A stretch of DNA of 64,000 nt, taken from NCBI GenBank assembly GCA_001662655.1, contig KV460243.1; one strand, written 5' to 3'. This stretch comes from Pseudogymnoascus verrucosus (Eukaryota). The translations under genes and the position numbers were made by a program. The notes under the pieces are model-generated. The model ran no database searches and had not been told where the DNA came from. It saw only the letters and a list, made by a program, of their open reading frames with translations. Of the stretch, positions 1 through 59,051 are shown in pieces. Each line of letters opens with the position of its first letter. Positions within the stretch are counted from its first letter, which is position 1.

Positions 1-328
1 TGCCGTGTAACAGTTGAATCCTTAGTGACAGCGGGATTGGAGTATCCGCAAGCGGGGTAAATGCAGCCTGCTAACAATCGGATCTGCCATTGGCAAGGCG
101 AAGGCTGAGGCGCTTTTGCGATGCGATTTGGTGCAACCATCAGCCCCTTCCGGCCCCGCGGAGAACCATCTATTCGATACACCAAGAGTGAGGCTCCGAA
201 GTGTCTACTATCCATTGGGTAAATGCACAATATGGGCCCGCATAAGTGATTACGAAATCCCCCTAGAGATGAGCGTGATTCTCAAGACGTAATAATTTCT
301 GCACGCACGATTACTATAAAGACCCGCC

Positions 329-3300
329 ATGGATCCCGCTAGCGGTGTTTCCATTCCTGGAAACACCTTTCAATTCCTCACCCTAGCGTATACCGTATCC
401 TCTCGACTAACAACGTACTGCAAGGCTAGCAGCGAGACTCCTCCGATATTCCATGAGCTGTCCGTTCAGATTCCTCTAGTCGCTGATATATGCCAAAAAC
501 TCCAAGACGATTCTTCGATCACCCCAGAACGACTATCTCATGTTCTAAAGGGGTGCAGTCGTATCCTTGAGACCCTGAACCAGATATTGTCAAAGGTCAT
601 CCCTGAAACGGGCGACTCCGTAAGGTCCAAAGTCCGAAAGGGAATAAAAAGCGTTACCATTGAGAATAAAGCCAAAGAATGCAAGACTGAGCTAGAGAGT
701 TACAAAGCGACATTAACGCTTTATCTTAGTGCCCAAAGACCATTCTTAGCTCACGCAGCTCTTGAACTTCCAACCTATCACTATCTGCCGTCGTTGGGAC
801 AAGCGAAATTCATCGGGCGGAAACAGCTTCTCAAGGCCATCGACCGTGTATTAAAAGCGGGAGGTCGAGACACCTGTGTTGCAGTCCTGCTGGGAATGGG
901 CGGACAGGGCAAAACTAGCCTAGCCATCGAATATTGCAGAGGAGAGAAATCCCGGGAACACTTCAAGACGATTCTGTGGATAAACAGCGTCTCGCACCTC
1001 TCCATCCAACGGAGCTTCGCAGAGATTGCAAAGAACATTGTAGCTTTGTCTGGCGAGCAGCGAGTCTTCCCTTCATCTAAAGCTCAGATTACCTTTATAC
1101 ACGGTATTGTCGAGAGCAGAAGCGCTCCGTGGCTCTTCGTATTTGATAACTACGATTGGCCTCAGAAGGTCAAACGCGTGCTCGATTACGCGCCACACTC
1201 AGCGAAAGGAGCAGTGATAATGACGACTCGACATGCGGATGTTGCTCAGTTAGGAACGCTTATTCCTGTATCCGGGATGAACGAAGTCGATGCGGTCGAA
1301 CTTCTCTTGGAACGCACTGGTCATGCACGCACTATCGGCAACTTAGAACAGGCAAAGGCTGTAGTGAAGATGCTTGGATATTTGCCTCTAGCCATTGATC
1401 AGAGCGCAGCTTATATTCGTTCTCGAAAGATCTCTCCCGAGCAATTTCTTGATCACTATAAAACTAGGAAAGAAAAATTATTGAAGTACCTTCCGTCTGT
1501 GTGGGACTATCAACGATCCTCGGGGGACGACGAAGATGAGCCTCCGCCTCTTAGTGTTTTTACAACATGGGAAATGTCCTTTACCCAAGCTGAGGAACAC
1601 AGCCCTATTGGCGATAATATTGGACACTTCCTTACCATACTTGGATTTTTCTCTCCACTGCAGATTCGGATGGAGATGTTCCAGGCCTACTATGAAGGGA
1701 TTCAACCCACGGGTGCTAACGCTTCGTCTTGGCTAGAGCCATTCTCGGATGGATCAAGCTGGGATAAATATGAATACCAGGACGCTGTTGTATTCGTATC
1801 CGAATTATCTCTTGTGACACACAGCGAAACATCCACTGATCCCGATGACCAACTACAAGATGCCCCCGGCTTCTGTACCATTGCACTGCACCCGCTAGTG
1901 CGGGACTGGGTGCAACTCAGGGTTCCGACTAGCGAGAGAAGGAAATATACCATCGAGGCCATAATTATCCTCGAACATTACATAATCTCCGCGGGCGATG
2001 ATTATCGAAACTGGCCTTTGAAAATACGGCTTCAAGCTCTTTCTCATGTCGACGCAACCCTGGAACTTCAGTCGAAGTACGCGACCGACTGGGCCAATAC
2101 TGATTACAACGAACTCCGTAAGGCCTTGTGTGTGATATGCTCCTTCTATGCCGACAACGGCAGGTATGAGGAGTCTGAAAGGATATGCAAAGAGATCCTA
2201 CACGCCGATACCAAAGGCCCGGACACGAAATCTCAAGCCGAATCAGCAGAGCTCCAGCTAACAGACATCTTCCTACTCCAAGGACGCTACGACGAAGTAG
2301 AAGAAATCATCGCCAGGCTCCTCGGGTCCTCGAAAAATAAAAGTGATAAGAAAACCAAAGTCCACATGGAGAAGAACCTCGCAAAAGCCTTTTCGAAACA
2401 GGGACGATATGACGAGGCCGCTGCTCTATACCACGATGTTCTAGAGCAGCAAGCATCTTTTCTCCCCATAAACGACCTAGATGTGCTCCACACAAAGGAG
2501 AACCTTGCATACGTATATCGCAACCAGGGCCTGCATCTCAAAGCCATCGATCTCTACGAAGCTATCCTAGAGGCTTATCGCCTTGCTGGCCTCGAGGACC
2601 ATCTGGATGCATTGAACTCTATGGTTAATCTCGCTAGTACATATCGTGCTCAGGCACAATACAGCCTCGCGACACCTCTGTACGAAAAAGCTAGCAAAGA
2701 GATCTCGGCCAAGCTCCATGCGGACCACCCGACGGCACTCTCCACCAAATCTTTCATGGCCATCAACCTTAGAGAGTTGCAGCGACACGAAGAAGCCGAA
2801 CACGCTTTCCGTGATGTTGTCGAACGATCTGCTAGGGTTCTAGGGTTGCTTCATCCTGACACACTCAAAGCTACGATGAATTTCGCTATCCTATGCGATA
2901 GGACGGGTAAACCGTTTGAAGCCGAGGAGCTGTATCGAACTACACTCATAGGTAGAGAACAGAAGTTGGGTACGGATAACCCATATACACTACGCACTGT
3001 GGAACGACTTGTCAGTTTGCTGTGGTCACAAAACCGCCTTGAGGAGGCTCTGGAGATTACTGCGAAGGCACTCAAAGCTCAGCAGAGAGGTTCGTTGGAG
3101 GAAGAAATGAAGACCCTAAACCTCGATAAACTAGACAAAATTGACACAACCTGGCCCTACCGACCCGTCGAAATACTCTTTGAAAGCGCCGTAGCAAGAG
3201 ACAATGCAAAACTAGCAGCAGCCCACCGCGACCGCATCGAGACGCAGAAATCCCTGGCTCGCGTTTACGAGTCACATGGAAAATTAGAGGAAGCCGGAGA

Positions 3301-3493
3301 ACTGCAAAGGCTTGCGGAGGCGGGGGAGGAGGTGTTGAGGCTGCAATTGTGGCAGACGGCGAGCCAGTGGAGGGGGTCGAGGGAGACGCTTGTGGAGACG
3401 GGGGTGGAGCCGTCGCCTTTGATGCTGGAATCACTTCCGGAAACGACTGGGCGGACATCGAGTGAGGGAACGAGTGAGAGGGGTCGGTCTTAG
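329..3493 (+). CDS. Fungal NLR-like STAND protein: N-terminal helical (SesA/HeLo-like) domain, NB-ARC NTPase, C-terminal TPR repeats
   Basis: Single 1054-aa ORF. P-loop GMGGQGKT, Walker B WLFVFDNYD, IMTTR sensor, GYLPLAI (GxP) motif, HPLVRDW. TPR-type repeats such as NLAYVYRNQG, NLASTYRAQAQY, LGLLHPDTL, LGTDNPYTL. Confidence 0.85.
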   Translation: MDPASGVSIPGNTFQFLTLAYTVSSRLTTYCKASSETPPIFHELSVQIPLVADICQKLQDDSSITPERLSHVLKGCSRILETLNQILSKVIPETGDSVRSKVRKGIKSVTIENKAKECKTELESYKATLTLYLSAQRPFLAHAALELPTYHYLPSLGQAKFIGRKQLLKAIDRVLKAGGRDTCVAVLLGMGGQGKTSLAIEYCRGEKSREHFKTILWINSVSHLSIQRSFAEIAKNIVALSGEQRVFPSSKAQITFIHGIVESRSAPWLFVFDNYDWPQKVKRVLDYAPHSAKGAVIMTTRHADVAQLGTLIPVSGMNEVDAVELLLERTGHARTIGNLEQAKAVVKMLGYLPLAIDQSAAYIRSRKISPEQFLDHYKTRKEKLLKYLPSVWDYQRSSGDDEDEPPPLSVFTTWEMSFTQAEEHSPIGDNIGHFLTILGFFSPLQIRMEMFQAYYEGIQPTGANASSWLEPFSDGSSWDKYEYQDAVVFVSELSLVTHSETSTDPDDQLQDAPGFCTIALHPLVRDWVQLRVPTSERRKYTIEAIIILEHYIISAGDDYRNWPLKIRLQALSHVDATLELQSKYATDWANTDYNELRKALCVICSFYADNGRYEESERICKEILHADTKGPDTKSQAESAELQLTDIFLLQGRYDEVEEIIARLLGSSKNKSDKKTKVHMEKNLAKAFSKQGRYDEAAALYHDVLEQQASFLPINDLDVLHTKENLAYVYRNQGLHLKAIDLYEAILEAYRLAGLEDHLDALNSMVNLASTYRAQAQYSLATPLYEKASKEISAKLHADHPTALSTKSFMAINLRELQRHEEAEHAFRDVVERSARVLGLLHPDTLKATMNFAILCDRTGKPFEAEELYRTTLIGREQKLGTDNPYTLRTVERLVSLLWSQNRLEEALEITAKALKAQQRGSLEEEMKTLNLDKLDKIDTTWPYRPVEILFESAVARDNAKLAAAHRDRIETQKSLARVYESHGKLEEAGELQRLAEAGEEVLRLQLWQTASQWRGSRETLVETGVEPSPLMLESLPETTGRTSSEGTSERGRS

Positions 3494-11748: not shown

Positions 11749-13989
11749 TTAAAGCTCATCAACCCTCTCCAGACTCCCCATAACCTTCTGGGTGCCATCC
11801 CCTCTCGTCTCATCCTTCACGTTCCCCACGACGAAGAAATCCTTCACAATCGCTGTCCCATCTATCACGGACTCATACTGTTCGGGCGTACACGTACCTG
11901 GAGCCCTAACGTAGCACTTCGGCTCCGGGACCTCTGGGACCTCGTTTTTGACATGGAACGTCGAAGACGGGCCCTCTGTCGTCAGGTCATCCGACACAGG
12001 CAAGAGGCCGGTCGCAATATCGCGGTTGAACATGGCACGCATGAAAATCTCATAAGAGACTTCAGGTTGGTACCATGGCACTATCGTTTCCAATTAGCCT
12101 CACATCCAACCATATTCTTCCCTGGGGCAAACATACCTTCGTGCCCAGCCTGGAACACCCGTGAAAAGGAGTAATTCCCATACTGCCTCACAAACCCCCC
12201 CTCTCCCTCACTAGTAAGAATCGGCGCGTACCCAGCACTCTTGAACCCTTCGGCGCCTTCGTGCTCGATCAACACAGACACTGCCTCCCCGCCGAGCCAG
12301 TTACAGGCATAGTCGCGGTCGCCGTACATCATGTGCACCTTGACCCCGCTGTCGAGGAGGTAGGCGACGGCTTGCATGGAGCCGGCACGGTTGATGTCGC
12401 CAGTGGAGTCGAAAGCATCGCCGACGGCGGGGGATGATGTGGTGAAGTTTACGGGTACGCCGAGGGCGGAGAGAACCCATTCTTGGGCGAGGTAGCCGTG
12501 CATGTCTGGGTCGTGTTAGTGGGGTGCAATAAAAGGGGGTAAAGATCTTATAAAGGTGAACAAGAGGCGCTCACATGGTTCGGGGGTTGGATCAGCTTTT
12601 GGGTGTGCAATGTCGTACCAACCCCACTTCAAGGTATGTAAGTTTAAATCCATATGAAGGGGGGAGGGAAGGAAGTAGGAGGGGAACGAACAGTGAGAAT
12701 CTTTTCGAACGTATCCATCGATGCGCAGTCGACCTTGTGGATGTCGTCAAAGCACTTAATGACCGAGGGCACATTTCCTCTCCAGTCTGGGTCTTCTGCT
12801 TCAGCTAGCTTCTGACATGCTGCCAGCTTCTCTCTGCATCCACCAGGCCTCTCATATTCGTCCACAGTTTTTTCATACTGTTCTTTGCTGATGTGTTGAA
12901 TTCCGTAGGTCTGTAATCTCATTAATATATGACCCAAAAATATGCAGTGGAGAACATACGTTATTATACGCCATTTGATTGTAGCTGGGGAACTGGACGA
13001 GGTTGTCGAGCAGGCCGTTGATTATTCCCAGGGTGTCAAGGTGTATGTGATGCGTTCCCGCCTCGTCAATCGTGCCATTATTGATCTTTTCATTCTGCTG
13101 CTGGAAGAACTTAAAGAACCCCGGCCCATAATGGCCCCCATAGCTCTCGGTCCATAGGCTCACTCTGTCATCATTCGGCTTGTACCCTGGGAACTCGGCG
13201 AACCAAGTCTGAGCGAAGTGCCACAGTGCGTGCGCAGCATGCACAGTCGTGTTAGCGGTCTTACCCAGCGATTGGCTACCCGCCGTGCCGACGTAGAAGG
13301 TGTTGTTCTGCTCAGGAACGCCGTCGGTGAAGTCCGTTGGGATCATCTTCTTAAGTTCGCCCTCCTGAAGGAGGTCTACAGTGATATTGGTGAGGACGTC
13401 GTAAGAGAAACCAACTTGAGCCGGCTGGTCAAGATAGAGCATGTTCACCTCGTTGTTCCATGACCATGGGTTTAAGTAGGTAGAGTTGGAGTCTGCGCCG
13501 ATAAAGCAAGGGCCGTTTTCTTGCAGGCCGCCCATTAGGGACGAGCCACCCGGGCCGCCATTGAGCCAGATGGCGAGCGGGGCATTTTGAGGGTCTTTTC
13601 TGGACTCGAAAAACCAAAAGAAGCTGGTAGCTACCGTTAACTGGATGTCTACATCTTTGAAATCCGTATTCCATGGGATTCTCACGTGTTGATGGGGTAG
13701 TCCTGGTTTTCACCACTTATATCGGAGAGCAGACCGGGCGGAAGATGCACGTATCCGCTGTAGCTCTTGACACCGGGTGTGGTCTCGCAAATTCCAGGCT
13801 GAAGTTTTGTCAGCTATAATTTTAGAATGTCATATAGGGTTTCTTTAAAATACGTGCCTCCTTGTACGAAATTGTGACTCCCTCATGGTACTTGGATTTC
13901 AGCGTTGTAACATCCTTCACCGGCGGCGGGAACTGGCCTAGAACCACTACCGGAGCCAAAGCAAGGGCGGCACCGATTAACGAAAGCAT
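11749..13989 (-). CDS. Secreted serine carboxypeptidase (peptidase S10), multi-exon
   Basis: Signal peptide [22 protein letters not shown]. Motifs [29 protein letters not shown], catalytic [18 protein letters not shown] and AGHEVPWYQP across spliced exons. Ends RVDEL. Confidence 0.9.
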
Positions 13990-14616
13990 TATAATATCAA
14001 CAAATAACCCGCAACTACTGTGTGCGTGAACAAAAACGATGCGCGCACCAACGGAGGAATATTATATGCATCTTATGTGTAACAAGACTATGGAATGGAG
14101 TACAAGCGTGCCACTTATCCGGCACTATGCGATTCGTTCGCCGGTGCCTAGGTGACATATCGCTAGTTACATGCGAAGCTATGATGCTTCTGGCAGGTGC
14201 ACTTGTGTTGCTTACGTTGACGCCAAAATACGCGTTTTTCGGCTGGGAAGACGCGAATCCTACCCATGAAGTTAAGGTACTCCATCCCCCCAAAAAAACC
14301 CAGTATCGTCCATCCCGTCTCAATTGAGCAGTGATAGTCGTAGTATTGGATATCCGCTCAAAACCTGCCCCGTCCCCAGAATCCCCCGTGTAGTACGAAG
14401 AGTACATTAATATGGTGCTTGCCACGAGTCCAGTGGGCTCTATGTGCATTTTCCCAAACATCGTTCACACCGGACATAACTCTTGACTGTTCGAGACAAT
14501 TAACGGCCATGCTACCGCTATTACAACAGCTGAGAGGCAGTGGACTGTCGGGGATGTGGCTCCTTAAATGGATCGAATGTATGTGTTAACATGTCTTGCT
14601 TCCTTAAATCTTCAAC

Positions 14617-14922
14617 ATATATGGAAAGAACGATTTCTAAGCAGACTCAGTCGCGGCTTCCTGGGGACCTTCAAGTCTGATATATGGAAATAACGATTAC
14701 CAAGCAAGCTCAGCCGCACCTTCCTCGTAGCCTTGAAGCTATATATATGGCAAGAACGACTACCAACCAAGGTCAGTCGTAGCTTCCTTAGAGATTCTCA
14801 GCGATATATATATATATATGGAAGGAACGATTACCAAGCAAACTCAATCGCAGCTTCCTCGGATATTTCAAGGCATATATATGGCAAGAACGATTTCTAA
14901 GCAAACTCAATCGTGACTTCCT
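14617..14922 (+). repeat. Tandem array A: 5 copies of a ~63-bp unit with a ~46-bp palindromic core ATATATGG(A/C)AAGAACGATTnCCAAGCAAnCTCA(A/G)TCGCAGCTTCCT
   Basis: Cores start at 14617, 14680, 14743, 14814 and 14877 (period 63, 63, 71 with AT expansion, 63). The ~17-nt linkers are more variable. Confidence 0.9.
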
Positions 14923-15053
14923 CAGCTTCCTCAGAAATCTGTGAAGGTGTTCTTGCATTTCCTGTATTTTGCTCACATGCGTTCCAAATCACTTTTCTTT
15001 CTCAATTGTCTCTTTAAACCTTCCCACAGTTTCCATGGTCATCTCCCTTGGCC

Positions 15054-17594
15054 TCAAACTCTATCCCCCACAGAAGGTCCATGTAATGTAGCCTCCCTAG
15101 GCAGTCTATTCTCACCCTCCTTATATTCGGCCCCTACCTCTCCTCGCGCCAAATCATTCACCCACCTCCCTGCCCCCTCTATCCCTCCCTCTCGAAACCT
15201 CGTCGCCAGATAAAACCATGCAAGCGCATTTCCCACTGTCCCAACCTCGTCGCTCACGGTCCGCGCTGCCACCTCACTCATCCGATCATGCAACTCGTGA
15301 TCAGTCCACAACCTCAATAGGCACCCTGCCGCGTCCTTCCAGTCCCCAGGCTCGACGAGGAACCCGTTGCGCTCGTGCTGGACCTGGAGTTGGATACCAC
15401 CTACCCGACTTACAATCACCGGCCGCCCTTTCTTGAGAGCCTCGGAGACTTTCACCTCGAAGCCTTCGCGGATGGAGAGCTGCATGACAATGTGTGCGTT
15501 GGTCATGAGCGCATTGAGGAGCTGGTCATATGGCTCGAGGCGTTGGACTGAGATGGAGCTTGCGAGGTGCGGACAGTGCGCTTCAATGTAAGACATGGTC
15601 TGGTCGTGGACGAGAGTGCCGTCGGGGTCGTCGATGGAGCCGTTGCCGACGCTGTGCGGAGTATTGTCAACCATGATCTGGAAAAGAAAGGGGCTTCGCG
15701 GCAGAGAGGGGCAAAGACAGGACTAACATGACAAGTTGAGGGGCATTCTTGACTGATTTCTCGCCAACTTTTTTGGCGAGAAGGGCGCGGAACTCTACAT
15801 AAGCCTTTAAGACGACCGGGATGCCTTTGGATGGGTCGAAGCGTGCTATTTGCACAAAGTATTGACCTAGAAAGTGGTGTCAGCTTGCTTTCACTAATCT
15901 TGGAAGGAGCAAAGCTTACGATCCGGAAAGCCTAATTCGGTCCTGAGATGTGGGTCAGTAGGGAAACATGTGTATAGTTGGGAGGTCTCACATCCGGATA
16001 CCGTGTGCCCTTTGATTATACAGGTGCATATAATACTGTGTATCCCAATCCGCCAATGGCTTGTTAAGCCCGTCCAACCTATATAAGCATCAGCAAGTAA
16101 ATTCGACCTACGGGGAGCGGAGGAAACCTCACCAGTCAGTAGTAGCGGGAAGATACGCAACCTTCTCAGCGGGCACACTCTGCGGAATAAATTCCGGTAC
16201 GGGGTGGCTTATGAACATATCTGCCTGCGTAATTTTAGACCACAAATGGTCCCAGATATCCTGCTGAGGCGTCCCGGGCGTGTCGCAAAGGTCGCTGCGA
16301 ATCTGGATATGGCTTCTGTATAGAACTGGCCGGTCAGGGGTGAGAAGCTTGATGAGGGGAATTAAGCTGGGCATTTGTGGGTCATCGATCTGGTAGTGTT
16401 AGGCAGGATATAAAATGTGTCATGGATTGGACATACAATGATAATATCAGCGCCGCCTTCCGAGGGCGGCCGCAGCGGCCCATTTTTGCAGAGCCAGTAC
16501 CTCTCGGCATGTTCGGTGATCCAGCCGTCCACCGAAGCTTTCTCTTCTTCTGAAATCCGGACACCAGGTTCCGCGACTCCTTGGAGGATATTATGGATAG
16601 TCTTCGTGACACGGAAGACGCCCGGTTTCGGTTTCGGAACGTACCTAGGGTTTCTCAGACCGGAACACCAGGTATACAACGGGCCAATGGGGCTGTACTC
16701 ACCACCGTAGATCAACGTCGACCGTTCGCGCAAAGCGCACAAGTGCGTGTCTCATCAGCGCCACGCCGCCGCCTTGCGGTGTACTACTGAAGAATGCGAT
16801 TTTCGTCTTTTTCTCCTTTAGTTTTGCCGCATAATGCAACATCGCGTCCCAAGTAACCGCCTGGCACGTCTTCTGATAGTCCTCAAGCATATGCATATGG
16901 GCGCGGAATCCTGCATCAATCTGCACAATCCCGCGATACCCAACTTGAAGCAGGGGCGAGAGATTCGGACCGAAGGCCCTGATGTTGTCAATTTTGGTGC
17001 AAATAGGGACATCAGATGGGGACGTACGTAATCGACTTCCTCGCCATCGAATCTGCCTGCTCATCAACGCCCCTATCCTTCCAAAACGTAAAACCCTCCA
17101 TATCTTTCTCTGAGCCCTCCTGATCGGGCCACAGCGAAAGTGGCACTAGATCCAGCTCCGACCACAGCCTTGAGCACAGCGACGGGCTGACGCGCTCGAG
17201 ATCTACGGGCAGGCCACCGCCGATGTACTTGCATAGGGATTTCTTCTGGTATTTGCGTAGGGATTCGACAACGAAATCGGCGATGGGATCAGTGCTGTCG
17301 CGTGGGGTCGGTAAGGGGACGTTGTGCACGGTGAAGTCGTGAAGGTAAACGCTGTCATGGACGGCGATGGCGACGACAGCAACGTTCGGTTCGTCATCGG
17401 TGAAGGCGGCGGAAACGCCAACGAAGAGGGGCTATGGTATTTGATTTAGCTTGCTGCACGGTTGGAGGGTATTGGAAGGCAACTAATCAGCAACATACCG
17501 TAAGCGTGATGGCGCCATGCTGCTTCTCGGCAACTTGCAGCCGGTACTTGGATGGCCGTTTCTCAAACTCTCTATTCGCGGCAAAGGCTACCAT
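15054..17594 (-). CDS. ccg-9: Trehalose synthase/trehalose phosphorylase (GT4, CCG-9 type), multi-exon
   Basis: IAFFSSTPQGGGVALMRHALVR, FRVTKTIHNILQGV, IDDPQMP, YRSHIQIRSDL, QIARFDPSKGIP, GNGSIDDPDG, QLSIREGFEVKVSEAL. Start at MVAFAANR assumed. Confidence 0.85.
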
Positions 17595-19894: not shown

Positions 19895-21360
19895 ATGCCC
19901 GACTTGAGCATCGAATTGGAAAATGGCCATGTGAGAAAGGTAGAGGAAAGCGCAAAATTACGATGGGCCCCTTTTTCAGCAAAACAACCATCTTTCCCAC
20001 GAGGTACAGATTCGAAATCCTTCATTGTTATTATAACGAATACTAATTTTAAGGCCATCTACATATTGATCGGGTTTTGCGGCGACGCATGGTTGATGTT
20101 ATTGCTCTGAACAGCTTTGCAGATTCCAGTCCGTCGACAAAAGAAGGGTTGAACGCATACGTTAACAACCTGTTGGCACAGTTTGAAGAAACACAGCCAA
20201 TATTCCATAGCTTGATTCCGTCATCGTTTAAACCCGGAAACGAAAATCGAGAAAATGACTGGTTTATTCAGAGCTTTCTCGTTATATGGGAGGCTGCCTG
20301 CCAACGTGGAAAGCTAAGCTTGGTTAGTCTGGCAGAAGCACTTCAAAGAGGGGACTGCCTGGAACCTTTTGAAAAATCACAAGCGAAAATGGACAAACTT
20401 TCGCTGCGATTTGTATTTTTCTTGCTTGGCTGCTCTACGACGTTATATATATTTCAATCCCGGCCCCTATCTCTGGGTTTCTTTCAGGTCTGCGGGTGCA
20501 ATCCGAAGACAAACTACTATCACTCTTCGTATCTAAAGACACAAGTCTCAGAGGAAGGGGCTCAACGTCCACTGAGAGATTTTCTACAGGGGTTCGGAAG
20601 ATTCCCTCTTCGAGCCTCTAAGATGCCCAGAGAGAACATCGAGCTACATGCGAGGGTGGCCATAAATCCCATCGATTTCAATGCAAAGGTTTTACAAAGC
20701 ACTTGCGGGATAAGTGTTGTGTGGACGTAATTTTGAGCGCCCATCTAGATTATGATGAACGGTCCAAAAGTCTGTTCTTGTTTATGTTTCCAAGCTTTTG
20801 CCTTGCAAATATTCCAAAAACCGGGGTCAATGACCATGTTAATATTGTTCAGCGGTATGCCACGCCTTCAAGCTCTTATACTCAATAGCTAATGAATTAG
20901 ATGCTGGACTGAGAATCCTTCTCCAAGTATACTTGCCTCGCAGGAGATGGCAAATTTCATGAAGGAAGCTCTCCTAACAACCCATTTAATCTTCTCGCAA
21001 TTCAAAAAGGCGAGAAAATTATTTCGGGTTGCCAACGCCTCCACTGATCCCTTATTGGCAATACTCTGCTGTCATGAATGGCCGGCTACATTTCAGGATT
21101 GGAACCACCGGCCTCGTCGAGTTTATGACTTGCATGATGATTTCCCCATATTCGAAAAAAGATTGAGAATACTCAACAACCAGATTGCTCTATCACAGCC
21201 AAAAGGATTAAAAGAACTTTAGAAAGATGACAGGGACAAACTCCAGTGGTATACGTTCTAGGCCGTTGTGATGATCGGGGGTTCTAGTCTTATGCTTTCG
21301 ATATGTCAGACTGGTCTCGCTACTGTGCAGGTTTGGGCAATCTTCTAGGTCAACACCTAG
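19895..21360 (+). pseudogene. Decayed fungal hypothetical membrane-protein gene (C-terminal QWYTFWAV-type TM family)
   Basis: Introns 20004-20053 and 20855-20900 join the ORF pieces in frame. One frameshift near 20725-20730 (WT*/..LSAHLDYD..LFMFPSFC). In-frame TAGs at 21220, 21259 and 21346 interrupt L*KDDRDKLQWYTF*AVVMIGG..LSICQ..VQVWAIF*VNT. Confidence 0.65.
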
Positions 21361-21402
21361 CAATATATATCAAATAGGATGTTGAGAGTTCAGTGCTTCT
21401 TT
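21313..21402 (+). repeat. 90-bp direct repeat, copy 1 (3' end of the pseudogene)
   Basis: Ungapped match to 23173-23262; 72/90 identical by hand count. Confidence 0.85.
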
Positions 21403-21506
21403 ACTCATCAGGGTGCCCTCACACAAGCAACCATGACACTAGAAGTCGAGGCGTATAGATTGGAATCACATCTAAAGTTTTATCATTTTCATGCTTCCAT
21501 ACATTC

Positions 21507-23019
21507 TTATAGATGTTTGTGTATCCATTCATCCTCCGCTAATTCCTTTGCGGAGCTACGCTTGCCTGGCTCCCATTGCAGCATTTTTCGCATGAAGCGT
21601 AAAAAGGCCTCTCTTTCCTCTTCACCCTCGAGAGTAGTTTCCCGTTCCTCAAGCGGAACCTGGCCCGTTAATAAATTTTTATTGCGGAAGGCACCTAAAA
21701 TAGCCATATACGGTTAGTATACGATACTATAATTTATTAGACATACGATGACAAGACTGTTGACTTGCCTTCGCTTGAAAAGAATTTATCTCGTAGCTCC
21801 CCTTGGGCAAGAAGACTCGATGGCGGGGGGCCAAGGAGATTTATCATCTCGGCGAGATGGGCTCGACTTCGGTACTTCTGAAACTCTAGATCATAGCCGG
21901 TGAACAAGGAACCGCCTTCGTAAATATCCCAAATCTATTCCAACAATTAGTAATTTTCGTCGCGTGGTAACCAGGCCGTGTGTCTTACCATGCATCCCAC
22001 ATTCCATATATCCACACTATACGTCCATGGAGCCTCTAGAATCACTTCTGGTGCTCGATAAATATTAGGTTGGACGAATTCCGAGTGGTGTTGGGCACCG
22101 AGCATGGCTGAACCAAAATCGCATAGGACCGGGGCATCCATATTATTTGGCATTCTGAGATCGCGGGACATGTATATCATTCTCCCGTCTATGTCTACCT
22201 CCTTCCTCGGAACAGGGTCTTGGAGCTCCTCCTCTTCAAAATCGCTAAAGACCGAATCGTCGTCTATGCCGAGCATGATATTATCGGCCTTTATATCTAT
22301 CAAAAATGTGTAAGTAAATAATGAAAGTAGGTAGTGAGGGAGGGACGGGTGGTTGCAAATCAAGCCACGAACCGGTATGTATGATCCGGCACTCCGTATG
22401 TAGATAGTCCAATGCTAAAAACAGTCGCAGAAGAACGAAGGCTATGACTTCCGAAGGCAGCCTCTCTACCGGGTTGCAGCGTAAGAACGTCAAAATGCTC
22501 TCAAATAACGGGGGGTGAACGAGACACTGGTGTTTATCCCCAGGCCCATCGACATAAAATGTGTCCAGTAACGTTCTGACGGCGTCACGACCACGATGAC
22601 CTTTCGGAGATTCTGCCATGCGCCTGTACATCTTGACCTCGTGATCCGCTTGCTGGTCCATAGACGAAGCCTGGATGGAGATTTTAAGCATAACATAACG
22701 ACGATAACTATGATTATAGTTCGTGAGCATATCGGACCCGGGTGATTATCTTGACAGATGAAGAGAGAGCTCACTTCATGTCCCGTGCAAGCCATGCAGT
22801 TGAGGTAGACCCAAACCCCAATTTCCCTACAACTTGATAGCGCTCTTTGATCACTTCTCCTATACAGGTAGGATAATACTGGGACGCAACATAGTCCGGA
22901 AGGGTCTCTTCTTCAATTTTGTGGTATTCCGGTACCAGGAGGAAGTTTGGGTTGGAGAAATTCAGTGGCTTCCATCGTCGTCCGAGCCTGGGCAAAGACC
23001 GCAGAAGCGACGACAACAT
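21507..23019 (-). CDS. SRPK-like (CMGC) protein kinase, multi-exon
   Basis: [84 protein letters not shown]. Confidence 0.85.
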
Positions 23020-23172
23020 AGTCCGAGAAAGGCTGTATCACATGAAATAAATAGCAGGTTAATCTGATCTAGACTTGTTGCTGTCTATGTTAATGTAGTT
23101 ACTAAGAGTGGCGCGAAGGATGGTATAGAACAGAAGTCAGGTGATCTGAAGAAAGAATCGCACCATAAGAAG

Positions 23173-23262
23173 GGTCTCGCAGCTGTGCAGGTTTGGGCCG
23201 TCTTTCAAGTCAACGCCTAGTGATATATCTCAGATTGGATGTTTAGAGTCTAGTATTTCTTT
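23173..23262 (+). repeat. 90-bp direct repeat, copy 2
   Basis: Matches 21313-21402; lies between the kinase start and the GH27 3' end. Confidence 0.85.
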
Positions 23263-25023: not shown

Positions 25024-25517
25024 GGTAGCAATTGATTCGGTGGTTGGATTTGACTAGATATAGTTTTGATAACTTGAAAATGCAATAATCACAGTGGTTG
25101 CAAGTGTGTCACCGACATTCAAATACACACCTACAGACACTGATACTTATACATATATAAGTAAACTTAATCTATTAGGTGGAAATTTAATCAACCGGCA
25201 CTTGGTTGTTTTAGCCGGCAGTACATATCGATTTCCCACCGCAGATCCGCCTTCGCGTAGTGGTGGTTACAGATCTTCCGACTTTCTTCCTCCAAGGTAT
25301 TTTGTTTAATACCCCGCAATCAAATCACAGCGGTTAATTGTCTAATGTTTTTTCCGTTATTGGTTGCTTTAACGTCCCCGCCCTTTACCCCTCGATTTGT
25401 CTCTGCTTGATAAGGTAGGCGCAGGTAATCCAATGTTCTCGACATCTATTTGGCGGTTCGTATTCAAAGACAGTTATGTTATAGCCCCGATGCAGAATTA
25501 TATGCCTTTATGCGTAG

Positions 25518-25695
25518 TTATAGATGATTGTATGTCCGCTCATCCTCCACTGGGTCCTCTGCTGAGCTACGCTTTCGTAGACCTGTAGCATTTCTTGCAT
25601 GAGTTGTAAAAATGCCTCTCATATTTTATCCCTCGCGAGTAGTTTCTTTTTCTCAAGCGGAACTCTGCCGATTAATAAATTTTCGGTTCAAGGAC
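25518..25695 (-). pseudogene. Degenerate remnant of the last exon of the SRPK-like kinase at 21507-21690
   Basis: Aligns by eye with 21507-21690 (ttatagatg..tcatcctcc..gagctacgctt..gagtagtttc..ctcaagcggaac..ttaataaattt), with indels. Confidence 0.75.
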
Positions 25696-42885: not shown

Positions 42886-43813
42886 GGATATTGGAGTCGC
42901 CATGAACATGAACAAAACATACGCGTGGATGACAAAAGCCCGGGCGGCGCCTGCGATGAATCCTTGACTTTGCGTGATTCAGGGTGTCCTTCATACACCC
43001 TACAAGTGGTCCCTCAGTTTCGAGCATAATAAAGCTTCACGGTTACGGATCGGACCGCAGATATTATGGAGTTATGGATAGCTCCGATATTGGCACCACT
43101 TGTACCTCTATAGCTTGAAGCTTCCTTGGAGATTATTGGGCCATGAGAGAGGAATATTGGTTTTGGATGAGCTCTGAGGAGACCTATTTGAGCACTGTGG
43201 CGTTGCGGATCTAATTCAATAGTCGCAGAATATGCCGACGATTGCACACCGCAGCTCTCAGCGTGTCTTATAATACTGTAACTGCCCCAGTCATTCTGGC
43301 GCATTAACGCCATCCGCCATTAGCTTTATAGGCAAGCGCCATAAAAGTCTTCCCATGCTGCCCAAAGAGCATAATAGATAGTGATCCCGGCGATCGCGAC
43401 TCCCTTGCAGGTGAGACACAGCTGAACTTTGCTTGGCGAGGGCTACGGGAGTGAGAAGCATCGTCCTATCGGTCACAAACCAGCCTGAATTGCTCAATAT
43501 GGGGTCCTGCTACCCTTTACCAACAAATCACGATGTCTGATAATAGAAGCGCTATTAAGCGTGTCATGAGACAGTGGTTCCCTGATTTAAGCTTATGGAT
43601 CGTCCCGATTGCGTATAAAGGTACCACCGCAGTTACCCACATATGCAGCACTCCAACCTGGCGTGCTGCATTTCGACTACTTGCAATTGCCCAAAATCAC
43701 CACCTCGATCCACAGTCGTCAACTGTCATAAACCTACCTTGAATATCCTCAATCACGTACGCAAGCTCCACAACCCCCTTGCTATTATATTCTAACGACC
43801 ATACCGCAGAAAC

Positions 43814-44044
43814 ATGAAACTCTACCTCGCCACGGTTTTCTTCATCATCCCCGTTATTATTGCGGCACCACTCCCGAGCCCTCAAGCGGGCGAGGCTCCA
43901 CCGAAAATACCACTGATCGCGGGCACGTTCGACATCGTTAACGGGTTGCCTGTGGCCCTCGGGTTGCCTGAGATCGGCGGACAGGTTATACATGGCTTCA
44001 CGAGTATTGTGGGCGGCATTTTTCGCCCGAAAAGGGACAACTGA
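43814..44044 (+). CDS. Small secreted peptide precursor 1 (76 aa)
   Basis: Signal peptide MKLYLATVFFIIPVIIA, pro-segment APLPSPQ; 5'-UTR intron 43757-43809 (GTACGC..CTAAC..CAG). Confidence 0.7.
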   Translation: MKLYLATVFFIIPVIIAAPLPSPQAGEAPPKIPLIAGTFDIVNGLPVALGLPEIGGQVIHGFTSIVGGIFRPKRDN

Positions 44045-44445
44045 AAAGTAGAAGTTTAACCGCTAGAGAGGGCTATGAATTTATTGTGGTTATGCTGAGA
44101 ATGTAGTTGCGGTTGGCTAGGTTTCAATAGATCTCATGTAGTTTGTCGAGCAATTAGGGGTTCTAAATGATGCAGCGATCTTTCAACAATATACCACGAT
44201 GTCTCACTAGAGACACTGTACTCAGCGTATCGTTGGGACTATAATTTCTTTTTTAATTTCTGGGACATTCGGGCTTCGGATATAAGCACGACAAATCACC
44301 CCCTCTAGTTAGGATCTTGTAACCGCCTAAACCACCACAATTCAAAACCTAAAAGTCCTCAATAGCCTCTCATATATCCCAAACCATCCGAGTAAGTTCC
44401 ACTGCAGGCAAGATAGGTTTTAGCTAACAATGACAGCAAAGCAAT

Positions 44446-44607
44446 ATGCAACTCCGCCTCGTCACGATTTTCTTCGTTGTGCCCGCTGTACTCGCAGCAG
44501 CACTGCCAGCCCCTCAGGGGACCCAACCACCAAATGACGACTCAAATCAAATTCTTGGATTGCTAGGCATCGTTCTCGGGACAGATCATCTTCCCGGCGG
44601 TCAATAG
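44446..44607 (+). CDS. Small secreted peptide precursor 2 (53 aa, not in ORF track)
   Basis: MQLRLVTIFFVVPAVLAAALPAPQGTQPPNDDSNQILGLLGIVLGTDHLPGGQ*; 5'-UTR intron 44392-44436 (GTAAGT..GCTAAC..CAG). Confidence 0.65.
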   Translation: MQLRLVTIFFVVPAVLAAALPAPQGTQPPNDDSNQILGLLGIVLGTDHLPGGQ

Positions 44608-45873
44608 TTGTGGCTGCCCATATTTAATACTCATAGAAAGTACCGTCGAATAATAAAATATTGATTAGTTAAAGACGATTTACACTCTGCTCGACCTTGC
44701 TATAATCTGTATGCCCTAGCTGCCGTTATGGCCGGGTTGCGTCCAACGAATAACTTCTGTCTTAGAATACGTCTACCTGTGCCTAAGACAAAGATTGTTG
44801 TCTCACTATGTCACAATATCTTAGCTTTTATATTGGCTTTATTTTAACCAAAGATTCTTAGCCATTCTCACAGCGCCGGTTCCAAGTCCTCAACGAGGCG
44901 TGGATCTCAACGGGCTTTTTAGAGACATCGCGAATTCAGACATATTACGTGGGAGTATTGGTGAGGGCATACAGTTAGGCCGTCGAGCTAGATGAATTCT
45001 CTTTATTCGTATTATCGCTGTAAGGTTGTGGGGTTAAACTTTAAATTTTGAAGTTCACGAGTGGTATTATGGATATATACTTTGCTTGCTCCATGGGGAC
45101 AGGTCTGAATTATGGTATATGCAGTATCACAGGCAGTATCACAGACAGTCGGGTGACTTTTTTTATAGCCAGCACTACATACAACTAGGGGGCTTTCACT
45201 ACGCTTTAAATATTGATACAACCCTTTTGGCCTCAACCATTTAACGCCAGAGGATGAGGTTATGCAAGACATAAACTGTGTAAAAAGTAGGTAACATGAT
45301 ATCGGAACCTCGGGAGGCAGGATAAGAGCCCTATAGGTCTGTCGACTGAGTCGAGCGCGACTGGGGAGACAAAGAGCCCAAATGGGTCTCACGCCTCGTG
45401 GCCAGGTTGACGCGGCAGGTTAGACGGATTGGCGGCTTCATCGCTATTGGTAATTTAATAATATACTCCAGCATAACAAAAAAGATTGCTCAAGCAACAA
45501 ATGTAATTTATAAGGACGTCATTTACAAATAATCGCTATTATATAATAAGCCCATCCAAGGCAATTTCACATAATTGAAGTATTTGGCTTGGCGTATGGA
45601 ATTGACCAGATGGTTTTCACGAGGATGGAAGCCATTTGATTCGCGGAAGATATTTCGTTGTGGACGAGCCCGCCCAAGATCTTATTTGCTGGGATATCGC
45701 ATCAATGGGTTAATGTAGACCGAAGCAAGTCTTGGCGATTTCCGACGGCTTGGGCCTCCATGGTACATAGGTCTATTCGGAAAATGATTATTAACAAGGA
45801 GGCCTTTCTTACCAGGGCCCTTTCTTTCCAGTTCAGTAATTAACTGCATACCATACAAGAGTCACTCTATCCA

Positions 45874-47157
45874 ATGGCACCGACAAGATATGCCCAGGTT
45901 GGCACTGGCAGCCGTGCCAGCTTCTTCTACACTGCTATCGCTCGGGATTTCCAGAGTGAAGCGACACTGGTTGCCTTTTGCGACACAAACCAAACCCGCA
46001 TGGATTATGCCAGTGATAACATTGAGAAAATTACAGGACAGAAGGTTCCAACCTACAAGGCAGCCGACTTTGATCGCATGATCGAAGAAACCAAACCGGA
46101 TCAAGTTATCGTCACAACCATCGACCGCACCCACCATGCATATATCATTCGGGCAATGGAACTTGGCTGTGATGTTATCAGTGAGAAGCCCATGACGACC
46201 GACGAAACGCACTGTCAGGAAATCCTCGATGCTGTGAAGCGTACTGGCCAGAAATTGCGGGTGACTTTCAACTATCGCTACGCACCACACAACACCAAGA
46301 TCCGCGAATTACTCGCTGATAACACTATCGGCCAGGTGTTTTCGGTTCACTTCGAATGGCTACTGAACACCCAGCATGGTGCCGATTACTTCCGTCGCTG
46401 GCATCGGGATAAGCGTAACAGCGGAGGCCTGCTCGTTCACAAGTCGACGCATCACTTTGATCTGGTAAATTTCTGGCTGGCGAGTCAACCAAAAACGGTT
46501 TTCGCCTTGGGGGAGCTGAACTTTTACGGAAAAGAGAACGCAGAGAAGCGCGGCGAGGAGAAGTTTTACTCCAGGGCCCATGGTAGCGAAGCTGCTAAGG
46601 ATGATCCTTTTGCGCTGCACATGGAGGATCACCCGGAACTAAAGTCGCTGTACTTGGATGCAGAAAAGGAAGATGGGTACTATCGTGATCAAAGTGTATT
46701 TGGGGACGGCATTAATATCGAAGACACCATGGGCGTGATTGTGAAATACCAATCTGGTGCTATGCTCACCTACAACCTGGTTGCATATTCCCCACTGGAG
46801 GGGTTTAGAGTTTGCTTCAACGGTAGCAAGGGCCGCCTCGAGGTGAACGTGATAGAGAAATCATACGTAAATGGAGGTGGTGATCGGGACTTGGAAGGTG
46901 CCGTGGATGAAATCGAGATTACGGTGCATCCCTTGTTCGGAGAGTCGTACAAGGTGCCTATTGACCAGGGACAAGGGGGGCATGGTGGTGGCGATCCTGT
47001 CCTACTCAACGATCTCTTTGGTCAACCTGCGCCTGACAGATTTAACCGCGCTGCATCGCATATCGATGGAGCCATGTCCATTCTCACAGGAATAGCCGCC
47101 AACCAGTCGATTCGTACAGGGCAGGCGGTGCAGGTTGACGGATTAGTTAAATTTTAG
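45874..47157 (+). CDS. Gfo/Idh/MocA-family NAD-dependent oxidoreductase (bacterial YteT-like), intronless
   Basis: Rossmann VGTGSR, ISEKPM, VTFNYRY, HGADYFRRWHR, SGGLLVHKSTHHFDLVN, GGHGGGD. Confidence 0.85.
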   Translation: MAPTRYAQVGTGSRASFFYTAIARDFQSEATLVAFCDTNQTRMDYASDNIEKITGQKVPTYKAADFDRMIEETKPDQVIVTTIDRTHHAYIIRAMELGCDVISEKPMTTDETHCQEILDAVKRTGQKLRVTFNYRYAPHNTKIRELLADNTIGQVFSVHFEWLLNTQHGADYFRRWHRDKRNSGGLLVHKSTHHFDLVNFWLASQPKTVFALGELNFYGKENAEKRGEEKFYSRAHGSEAAKDDPFALHMEDHPELKSLYLDAEKEDGYYRDQSVFGDGINIEDTMGVIVKYQSGAMLTYNLVAYSPLEGFRVCFNGSKGRLEVNVIEKSYVNGGGDRDLEGAVDEIEITVHPLFGESYKVPIDQGQGGHGGGDPVLLNDLFGQPAPDRFNRAASHIDGAMSILTGIAANQSIRTGQAVQVDGLVKF

Positions 47158-53205: not shown

Positions 53206-54700
53206 GGTGGCGATTTACTCGACTGGCGCAATTGGCGCCGGTGGTTTGTAGCTGCGAGAGTTGAAGGTGTATCCAAAAACCTTTTCCGGATGACATGGGA
53301 CTTTATATCTATCCGGTCAAATGCCCAGCCATATCGCCCCAATTTGCGTGATATTGCCCTGCTGTCGCATGTTTGGCTTGAGTTGGTTGATCCACGGCAG
53401 GTCAGGGTACTGGTTGGACGGGACTTGAATTCTGGGGAAGTGGCTGACTTTCGGTGTAGCAATACCCCGATGGACCAAGTTAGATTAATGCCCCATGCGG
53501 GGAAGGACCAATTAACCCCGCAATTTCCATAACCTTGTCATGGGGACCGCGGCTCGCGGGACTAGGAACACGGAAAAGAGGAGAGGAAAATAGCGATAAT
53601 AGGACGATAATAGGATCATACTCGAGTACCGCGAGAACCTCGGGCGTAGTACGTGGCGCGGAATAACTTGGCTATGAGTCTGTGCACATAATAAATTCCA
53701 ACGAACAAGCCCCAGCCCTATCGACATTCAGCATATTGTTGGTGTCTCGGGTTTTAGATTGTATTGTTCACCGAGATGTTTCTATTGAAATAAGGGCTTG
53801 AAATAAATCTCAAAGGACGCTCTAACTGCTCAAAGTACGATATTAAGTCATCTGTCATATTATAGTCTTCTTCGAGTCAGTCCCCACCCATTAGCATCGG
53901 CTATACCGTCTCCTACCCCCTACAACCTTGATCCAATCGCTGTATTATAGCCACATGCTACTCCACCCTGCTTCGCTATTCTTCATCACCCCCACTATTT
54001 TTACAGCTCCGTTCCCCAGCCCTTAACCTGGGGATCTGCGGGGAAGCTGCAGATTCCACGTGTGTTTGCATTCACTGACTCGGGGAACTGATCAGCGAAG
54101 TCACAGTAATGTAGTCCGACTATTTACCCATGCGGCTTATTTCAATATCTTACGGCGCTTAGGGGTTGGTAGGGGTCATGGGACAATGGATATGCTCGCA
54201 TGACTGAGGCCTGCCAGTGGTTGTTACGGGTGGCAAGGTTGCCTATTTATTTCAGCGCTGTTTGGGTAGCAGCTGTGGAGTTCAGCTATAGGAAAATAGT
54301 CGAAATTAAAGTCAAACATCCTCTCGCATTTTTTATTCGTCCAGTTATAGCTAGATATAGGCTTCGGACTTGACGAGTAAAGTTGCAAAGAGGATTATTC
54401 TCATGCATTGCAATTTTCCTGCAGAGGGAAATTAAGTTAAGCGCCATTTTGTCCAGGAGATATGCAAGCTGTGGACGGACCTACCAGCATTATTTTCTGT
54501 TGACATGCACTACCTCCCATAGTGTTTTAGACTCGCGCTTCGATCTCAGGAATATAATACTTTGCCTTGGTGGGCTGGCTGACGCTGTACTTCATGCTCC
54601 GAGGTGGGACTTCCAGTAAACGCTATCGCCACCTGTAAGACCCCCTTTCCAGAATTGGCCGAATCGTCATTTCGCTGGCCACAGTCGTCGAGTATGGCTT

Positions 54701-58255: not shown

Positions 58256-58809
58256 ATCGACAATTTCAAACTTAGTCCCAATGAGAGATGGTTCTTGAGA
58301 GACCACTGTAAGCCGCGATGACGATGATAATGGTGATTTTAGGGAAGGCGCGATTAACGTAACTTCCTAAGAAGGAAATATCGAATTGGAGTGCATGAAG
58401 GAGAGAATGTCTCGCGGCTGGGGATATCAAGGCTATGCCCCATTTTCTTAATCCGCATCTAATCCTCACGGGTTTGCATTCCCCGTGATAAGTCCGCGAT
58501 AATAATGATGATCACGGATTTATCACGGAGAGTATGCGGGGAATATGCGGGGTTAACCTCTTAAAATATCTTACACTAGTTACTTACTAAAGCACCCTAA
58601 AATAGTGAGTGCCACAACTCTAAATAAGCTATGCACGCCAAATGTCAAAAATTCAGTAATACGGCCGAATATCCCAACGAAAACCTCATGAATGCCTACA
58701 CTGTAGTATCACAGTACCTTGTATTCAGCCCCGTCATGACATACTCAAAGCGTGTTTGTCTACCATGTAGCTTTCCTGGCGTGTCAGTTTACCCATAATT
58801 GGTTATAAC

Positions 58810-59051
58810 AGGAAGCTACGATTGAACGCTTGCTTAATAATCGTTCTTTCCATATATAGGAACTAAAACTCTTAGGGAAACTGCGACCAAGGCTTGCTTG
58901 ATAATCATACCTTCCGTATATATATAACTTAACAGTAAGGGAAGCTGCGATTAAGGCTCTGCTTGATAATCATACCTTCCATATATATAACTTTGTAAAC
59001 CCCAAGGAAACCGCAAATGAGGCTTGCTTGGCCATCGTTCTTTCCATATAT
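58810..59051 (-). repeat. Tandem array B: 4 copies of the same unit as 14617-14922, in reverse orientation
   Basis: Units begin on + at 58810, 58875, 58939 and 59005. Reverse complement of the first: ATATATGGAAAGAACGATTATTAAGCAAGCGTTCAATCGTAGCTTCCT. Confidence 0.9.

Follow-up and report, generated by a model that had tools for sequence, protein, structure and literature searches.

Two Short Repeat Arrays in the 64-kb Window

The window (the whole 64,000-nucleotide stretch of DNA analyzed here, from the cold-adapted soil fungus Pseudogymnoascus verrucosus) contains a short tandem array, array A, located about 125–130 bp past the stop codon of a glycosyltransferase group 1 open reading frame (ORF) and upstream of a serine carboxypeptidase S10 gene, where the initial annotation had placed it. 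Its five units were recovered as described (TRF score 226), with start-to-start spacings of 63, 63, 71, and 63 bp (Table 1). A second array mentioned there, array B, is also present with four units of the same family, and a Zn2Cys6 transcription-factor ORF ends about 140 bp from it. By eye, several short inverted and direct repeats occupy positions 58340–58560, in the interval separating array B from the squalene synthase gene. A protein encoded in the window shares 94–99% identity with named Pseudogymnoascus proteins, which places the genome in that genus.

Table 1. Positions of the array units and flanking genes in the window.
Feature	Position	Strand	Family-model score (bits)	Remark
Array A, unit 1	14617–14679	+	58.7	AT-rich lead, conserved core, variable linker
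Array A, unit 2	14680–14742	+	56.2	
Array A, unit 3	14743–14813	+	52.4	Expanded (AT)n run after it (spacing 71)
Array A, unit 4	14814–14876	+	68.9	Top family-model score in the window
Array A, unit 5	14877–14922	+		Core only; similarity stops ~4 bases into the linker
Array B, four units	58810–59051	-		Faces array A at a distance of 44 kb
Glycosyltransferase group 1, last open frame	15054–15722	-		Flanking gene, context; outside the element
Serine carboxypeptidase S10 frame	12873–13709	-		Flanking gene, start codon near 13990 (by eye); outside the element

One contig assembled from public runs covers array A at the orthologous place. The contigs from these runs (X2, X3) that pile up on array A represent related repeats and do not reflect copy number. 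An X2 contig from a more distant relative joins position 14268 to 15097 with unknown sequence in between, and it was left out of the empty-site count.

Other features of the window include a SesA/NB-ARC/TPR gene (320–3493, +), that is, a fungal NLR-type receptor, and an intronless Gfo/Idh/MocA oxidoreductase gene (45844–47157, +) beside genes for a PcRGLX-like lyase and a sugar transporter. The best matches of the oxidoreductase outside Pseudogymnoascus are in Eurotiales fungi (72–84%) and Paenibacillus (72–78%), which points to a bacterial origin. Three related 82-bp stretches (43812–43893, 44444–44525, and 53953–54034; 68–72% alike) resemble the starts of small secreted-peptide genes, and a partly duplicated non-coding sequence occurs at 21308–21679, 23168–23262, and 25502–25683, the copies being 1.9 and 4.0 kb apart.

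A Dispersed Repeat Family

Searched at the DNA level, the 30.2-Mb Pseudogymnoascus genome yielded 36 arrays with 170 unit hits (2 to 10 per array); a further search with another query brought in a 37th, adjoining an assembly gap. The smallest array has two units. The family thus amounts to about 37 arrays and about 11 kb of the genome, a lower bound obtained by DNA and pattern searches of a draft assembly of 151 contigs. All 78 genome matches to the exact two-arm pattern fell inside known arrays, and 143 of the 148 matches to a 22-base motif (≤3 mismatches) were found at the 36 arrays; the other five are unplaced, and some may belong to the 37th array. Reversed controls returned no match. Pattern and BLAST searches of viral contigs, prokaryote genomes, plasmids, and phages were also negative. 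Scanning metagenomes with the exact pattern recovered two loci only, a result that, given the exactness of the pattern, says little about a wider distribution.

Among the 164 units parsed as full, no two are identical. Unit identity averages 76.1% within arrays (355 pairs) versus 74.4% between arrays (13,011 pairs), and the nearest neighbor of a unit resides in its own array in 20 of 164 cases, compared to 4.4 expected, a weak sign at most of concerted evolution within arrays. Judged from their sequences, the units are old and star-like in relationship. Linkers are homologous to one another as well, at about 66% likeness over all pairs; a CRISPR-like repeat-spacer array was rejected on this ground, the spacers not being unique. 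One array (L057:4755–4892; contig C14, ~181.5 kb) is the sole one with an inverted unit: a single unit, about 13 bp away from a run of six, meets that run head to head, and a short tandem repeat of 10 bases comes after the array.

The mean unit spacing across the family is 64.0 bp (116 spacings of 59–67 bp, with 11 longer spacings left out). Since only 25 of the 116 spacings are exactly 63 bp, the equation of the period with six helical turns did not hold. A period of 63 bp would also equal 21 codons, a few arrays lie inside open frames of 131–189 codons, and several common changes would be synonymous or conservative in one frame, features that a remnant of a 21-codon protein repeat would display. 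That origin is scarcely credible: spacings of 61–67 bp break the frame, stop codons arise in some units, and conservation of 95–98% would be required at fourfold-degenerate third positions of the right block. The non-triplet length variation already contradicts it.

The statement that the repeat corresponds to no named fungal element agrees with our searches, as neither Rfam nor the literature searched provided a match. No earlier description was found in that literature, although supplements, repeat databases, and most subscription papers could hold one. In the accessible text of a comparative paper on Pseudogymnoascus (PMC4438637), repeats are mentioned only in terms of RepeatMasker masking.

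Evaluation of the Proposed Hairpin

The initial annotation interpreted the core as a hairpin whose stems covary. We evaluated this idea with an alignment of 120 units. Of these, 115 come from the present genome, for the most part non-terminal units of good score, and 5 come from relatives. The covariation score was 0.098 versus 0.097 for shuffled data, with 190 of 500 shuffles as high, and the variation preserved pairing no better than chance, 82.7% of the cells being paired compared to 82.6% after shuffling. RNAalifold assigned no consensus pair to the same alignment. In a set of 163 units, each proposed pair was as frequent as independence predicts; one outer pair is broken by an uncompensated A-to-C change in 27 of them, and another stem pair is broken in about a quarter. 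What had been taken for a double compensatory change in unit 3 turned out to be two one-sided changes against the family majority. The top mutual-information pairs within the linker are probable shift artefacts and were not used.

The hairpin itself fared no better. Complementarity extends to 8 of 13 arm positions, a value that 67% of 1500 shuffles equal or exceed, and array A as a whole folds no better than its shuffles (z of -1.29 on the + strand and -1.42 on the - strand). Mean z values for the individual cores were -0.56 (+) and -1.08 (-). Rfam produced no match in the window at the gathering score, and at E values up to 5 it gave six chance-level matches in 12 array loci, none of them on an array; ARAGORN detected no tRNA in 34 array loci. 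A likeness to ribozymes (twister, HDV-like, hairpin, and hammerhead) or to 5.8S rRNA was dropped for want of Rfam support. Likenesses to Gcr1, HSF, and AflR sites were likewise dropped, with no GCR1_C match in a search whose controls were silent. A sigma-70 scan, which is not pertinent to a fungus, had no match.

The lack of covariation over many genomic copies is one of the outcomes that the initial annotation had itself named as speaking against structured-RNA modules, and the arrays show no strand preference either: among the 23 of 36 arrays with a 3' gene end within 600 bp, 12 are in sense and 11 in antisense orientation. A structured RNA or single-stranded DNA module (a small RNA precursor, aptamer, ribozyme, or enzyme-read hairpin) could nevertheless be too invariant for covariation to appear. 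The most conserved blocks can pair together, variants of four inner pairs are mostly G-U compatible on the + strand, and invariant columns offer little covariation power. Against this stand the shuffled-level covariation, the broken pairs, the chance-level complementarity and weak core folds, the Rfam results, and the conservation of unpaired columns, which equals that of paired ones. Taken together, we regard such a module as distinctly unlikely.

Column-Specific Constraint on the Core

The core is more conserved than the linker, as was originally noticed. Changes per unit on the tree were 0.006–0.03 for the best core columns, 0.049 for the outer arms, 0.075 for the unpaired internal loop, 0.078 for the inner arms, and 0.259 for the linker, and some core columns, paired or not, change about 10 times more slowly than the linker. 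The overall core-to-linker contrast of 2.8-fold decreases to 1.4–2.1-fold once linker gaps are allowed. The unit has two conserved blocks of about 28 and 15 bp, separated by 11–16 bp between the inner arms. From one base to the next, near-invariant columns give way to variable ones, for example, a column with 1 change beside columns with 17 and 23. Core columns that have the same base differ strongly in rate (p from 1e-6 to 1e-12), the rates of partner columns are uncorrelated (rho -0.08), and core CpG positions are 87–99% conserved.

A neutral minisatellite family, in which mutation bias and gene conversion between copies produce an apparent conservation, would explain the slightly greater likeness of units within arrays. 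It would also fit one comparison with an orthologous array, where the cores kept 74 of 86 positions (86%) and were no better preserved than the flanks (219/269, 81%, and 217/252, 86%) or third codon positions (465/543, 86%), with the caveat that the orthology of units in this comparison is blurred by shuffling. The alternation of rates from one base to the next is unlike the product of conversion tracts. The heterogeneity within each base class and the conserved CpG sites also stand against neutrality, which is very improbable in our judgment.

The initial annotation had alternatively proposed phased palindromic protein-binding sites in DNA. The constraint on individual columns fits the protein-binding part of that proposal; the unit is not significantly palindromic and the array is not strictly phased.

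Genomic Placement, Turnover, and Flanks

Arrays are enriched behind genes and depleted in front of them. A 3' gene end lies within 400 bp of 20 of 35 arrays, compared to 28.5% for matched random positions, and only 2 of 35 are near a 5' gene end, compared to 41%; one contig-end array was left out of these counts, and gene ends refer to long open frames and not to annotation. The open frames closest to 34 of the arrays, 134 in all, are ordinary genes with no relation to one another or lack a Pfam match, and none of them encodes a transposase, reverse transcriptase, or recombinase. Neither a binding protein nor a partner enzyme for the arrays came to light.

A neighboring array within 60 kb was found for 18 of 36 arrays versus 4.2 under the null (P 5e-5, or 0.003 given per-contig counts), where the 60-kb cut-off was picked after seeing the data and the null used mostly interpolated contig sizes. 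Arrays often occur in pairs 21–60 kb apart. The members of a pair do not clearly resemble each other in sequence more than randomly paired arrays do (percentiles 0.12–0.94).

Two metagenome contigs, from two relatives, disclosed turnover. On L065, the array orthologous to that at C22:251 kb has five units compared to three here, with shuffled unit halves. On L066, an array follows a gene at a distance of about 200 bp; the orthologue of that gene in the present genome (88% identical; C6:386 kb) has no array, and the DNA directly after the stop codon is unrelated. Since this empty site is known from a single short contig that breaks off within the array, a rearrangement is possible.

In 15 of 36 arrays, 30–180 bp of nearby flank is common to another array. 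End points of these captured flanks differ, the shared sequences are not the same between groups, and no fixed ends are apparent. One array pair shares flank on both sides, and one shared flank occurs beside arrays only (2 of 2 matches, one being itself). Arrays end in the linker in about 30 of 37 cases on each side; thus, whole cores are kept.

These observations bear on a further explanation, that the units stem from a decayed non-autonomous transposon of the Helitron/Helentron, MITE, or Crypton type, in which they formed internal or subterminal repeats, with the constraint recording past transposase binding. This explanation would accommodate the scattered copies, the presence or absence of arrays between relatives, the groups of arrays with flank in common, and the local clustering. 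In contrast, the shared flanks lack fixed ends and differ between groups, no target-site duplication was detected at array ends (5.1 versus 4.9 bases), the inverted-end signal is marginal at most (5.2 versus 4.85, sd 0.15), no transposase occurs in the flanking frames, and identical units are absent. Helitron_like_N, GCR1_C, and NDC10_II had no match in the genome, which counts for little as the controls in these weak searches were silent too. We consider a decayed transposon fairly unlikely. A MITE or similar non-autonomous transposon in the strict sense was rejected, given that fixed ends, terminal inverted repeats, and target-site duplications were not found.

The genome contains 19 matches to DUF3435 (Starship captain-type), most with internal stops, on contigs C6, C15, C18, C20, C24–27, C44, C46, C52, and C61; none is next to an array.

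Discussion

The arrays behave as a dispersed satellite: head-to-tail, non-coding clusters at many gene-rich loci, with a copy-number change and a gain or loss observed in one case each. Short euchromatic satellite arrays have been described for the 1.688 and Rsp-like satellites of Drosophila (PMC7403614) and for Cast1–9 of Tribolium (PMC11610590). As far as the available sections of these two papers extend, the resemblance includes small tandem groups among genes, syntenic gain and loss, copy change by unequal exchange, and junctions common to clusters with variable lengths of unrelated flank; there, the spread of the satellites is attributed to circular DNA or interlocus conversion. Unlike the insect satellites described in those sections, the present family, at about 37 arrays and 11 kb a small one, occupies a compact fungal genome with no large block in the assembly, displays little within-array homogenization, and is constrained base by base in its core. 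The likeness noted here is one of behavior.

The architecture is reminiscent of STB of the yeast 2-micron plasmid, described in the part of PMC6344848 available as five imperfect direct repeats of 62–63 bp, 65–98% alike, whose cores are conserved and whose flanks diverge; proteins bind them, and function takes at least two copies. The likeness to STB as portrayed there is architectural only. STB is one plasmid locus served by plasmid-encoded Rep proteins, whereas the arrays are chromosomal and dispersed between ordinary genes, and the majority sequence of the unit does not contain the TGCA motif of STB. An STB-type partition locus was accordingly discarded as an identification, the arrays not being plasmid-borne and having no plasmid match. 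Bacterial REP/REPIN/BIME elements are also short extragenic repeats under sequence selection and sometimes tandem (PMC3116915, in the portion accessible). According to the same portion, REPs are true palindromes in inverted doublets that need a Y1 (RAYT) transposase; unlike them, the units here stand head to tail and are palindromic at chance level. Y1_Tnp had no match in a genome search that detected 6 of 14 controls. With neither a palindromic unit nor a Y1 transposase, this class was set aside.

Our preferred interpretation, which we hold to be somewhat probable on the evidence of sequence, is that of a slowly spreading, genus-level family of dispersed, satellite-like short arrays that serve as multi-site protein-binding DNA under selection on the letters of the core. 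A predicted protein would read both core blocks in double-stranded DNA and would need several sites in a row, and selection, most likely for this binding, would keep the core letters. Unequal exchange could add and remove units within arrays. New arrays may be seeded by repair-type copying, either reintegration of circular DNA or template switching, which would drag variable lengths of flank along and often place the new array within 60 kb of its source. Copies near promoters would be removed by selection, such that arrays survive mainly behind genes. Candidate roles comprise a service to the host (termination, a chromatin boundary, or chromosome organization) or the repeat's own benefit.

A more specific version of this protein-binding interpretation is conceivable, and we offer it tentatively as an unlikely but defined possibility: the arrays, stationed behind genes and often paired, might act as STB- or iteron-like loading platforms for a putative fungal DNA-binding protein. 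They might thereby organize domains of the host chromosome, or they might form a self-perpetuating partnership of repeat and enzyme, analogous to REP/RAYT but in a eukaryote.

Most descriptions of dispersed short satellite arrays come from large animal and plant genomes, in which a function has been argued and not demonstrated. If no protein binds, the family would still be a useful marker of the genus and an example of a repeat that spreads without transposon hallmarks. Here, the compact genome with about 37 countable loci, the per-base conservation profile, the natural variants, and the placement rule make both the binder and the effects on neighboring genes directly testable.
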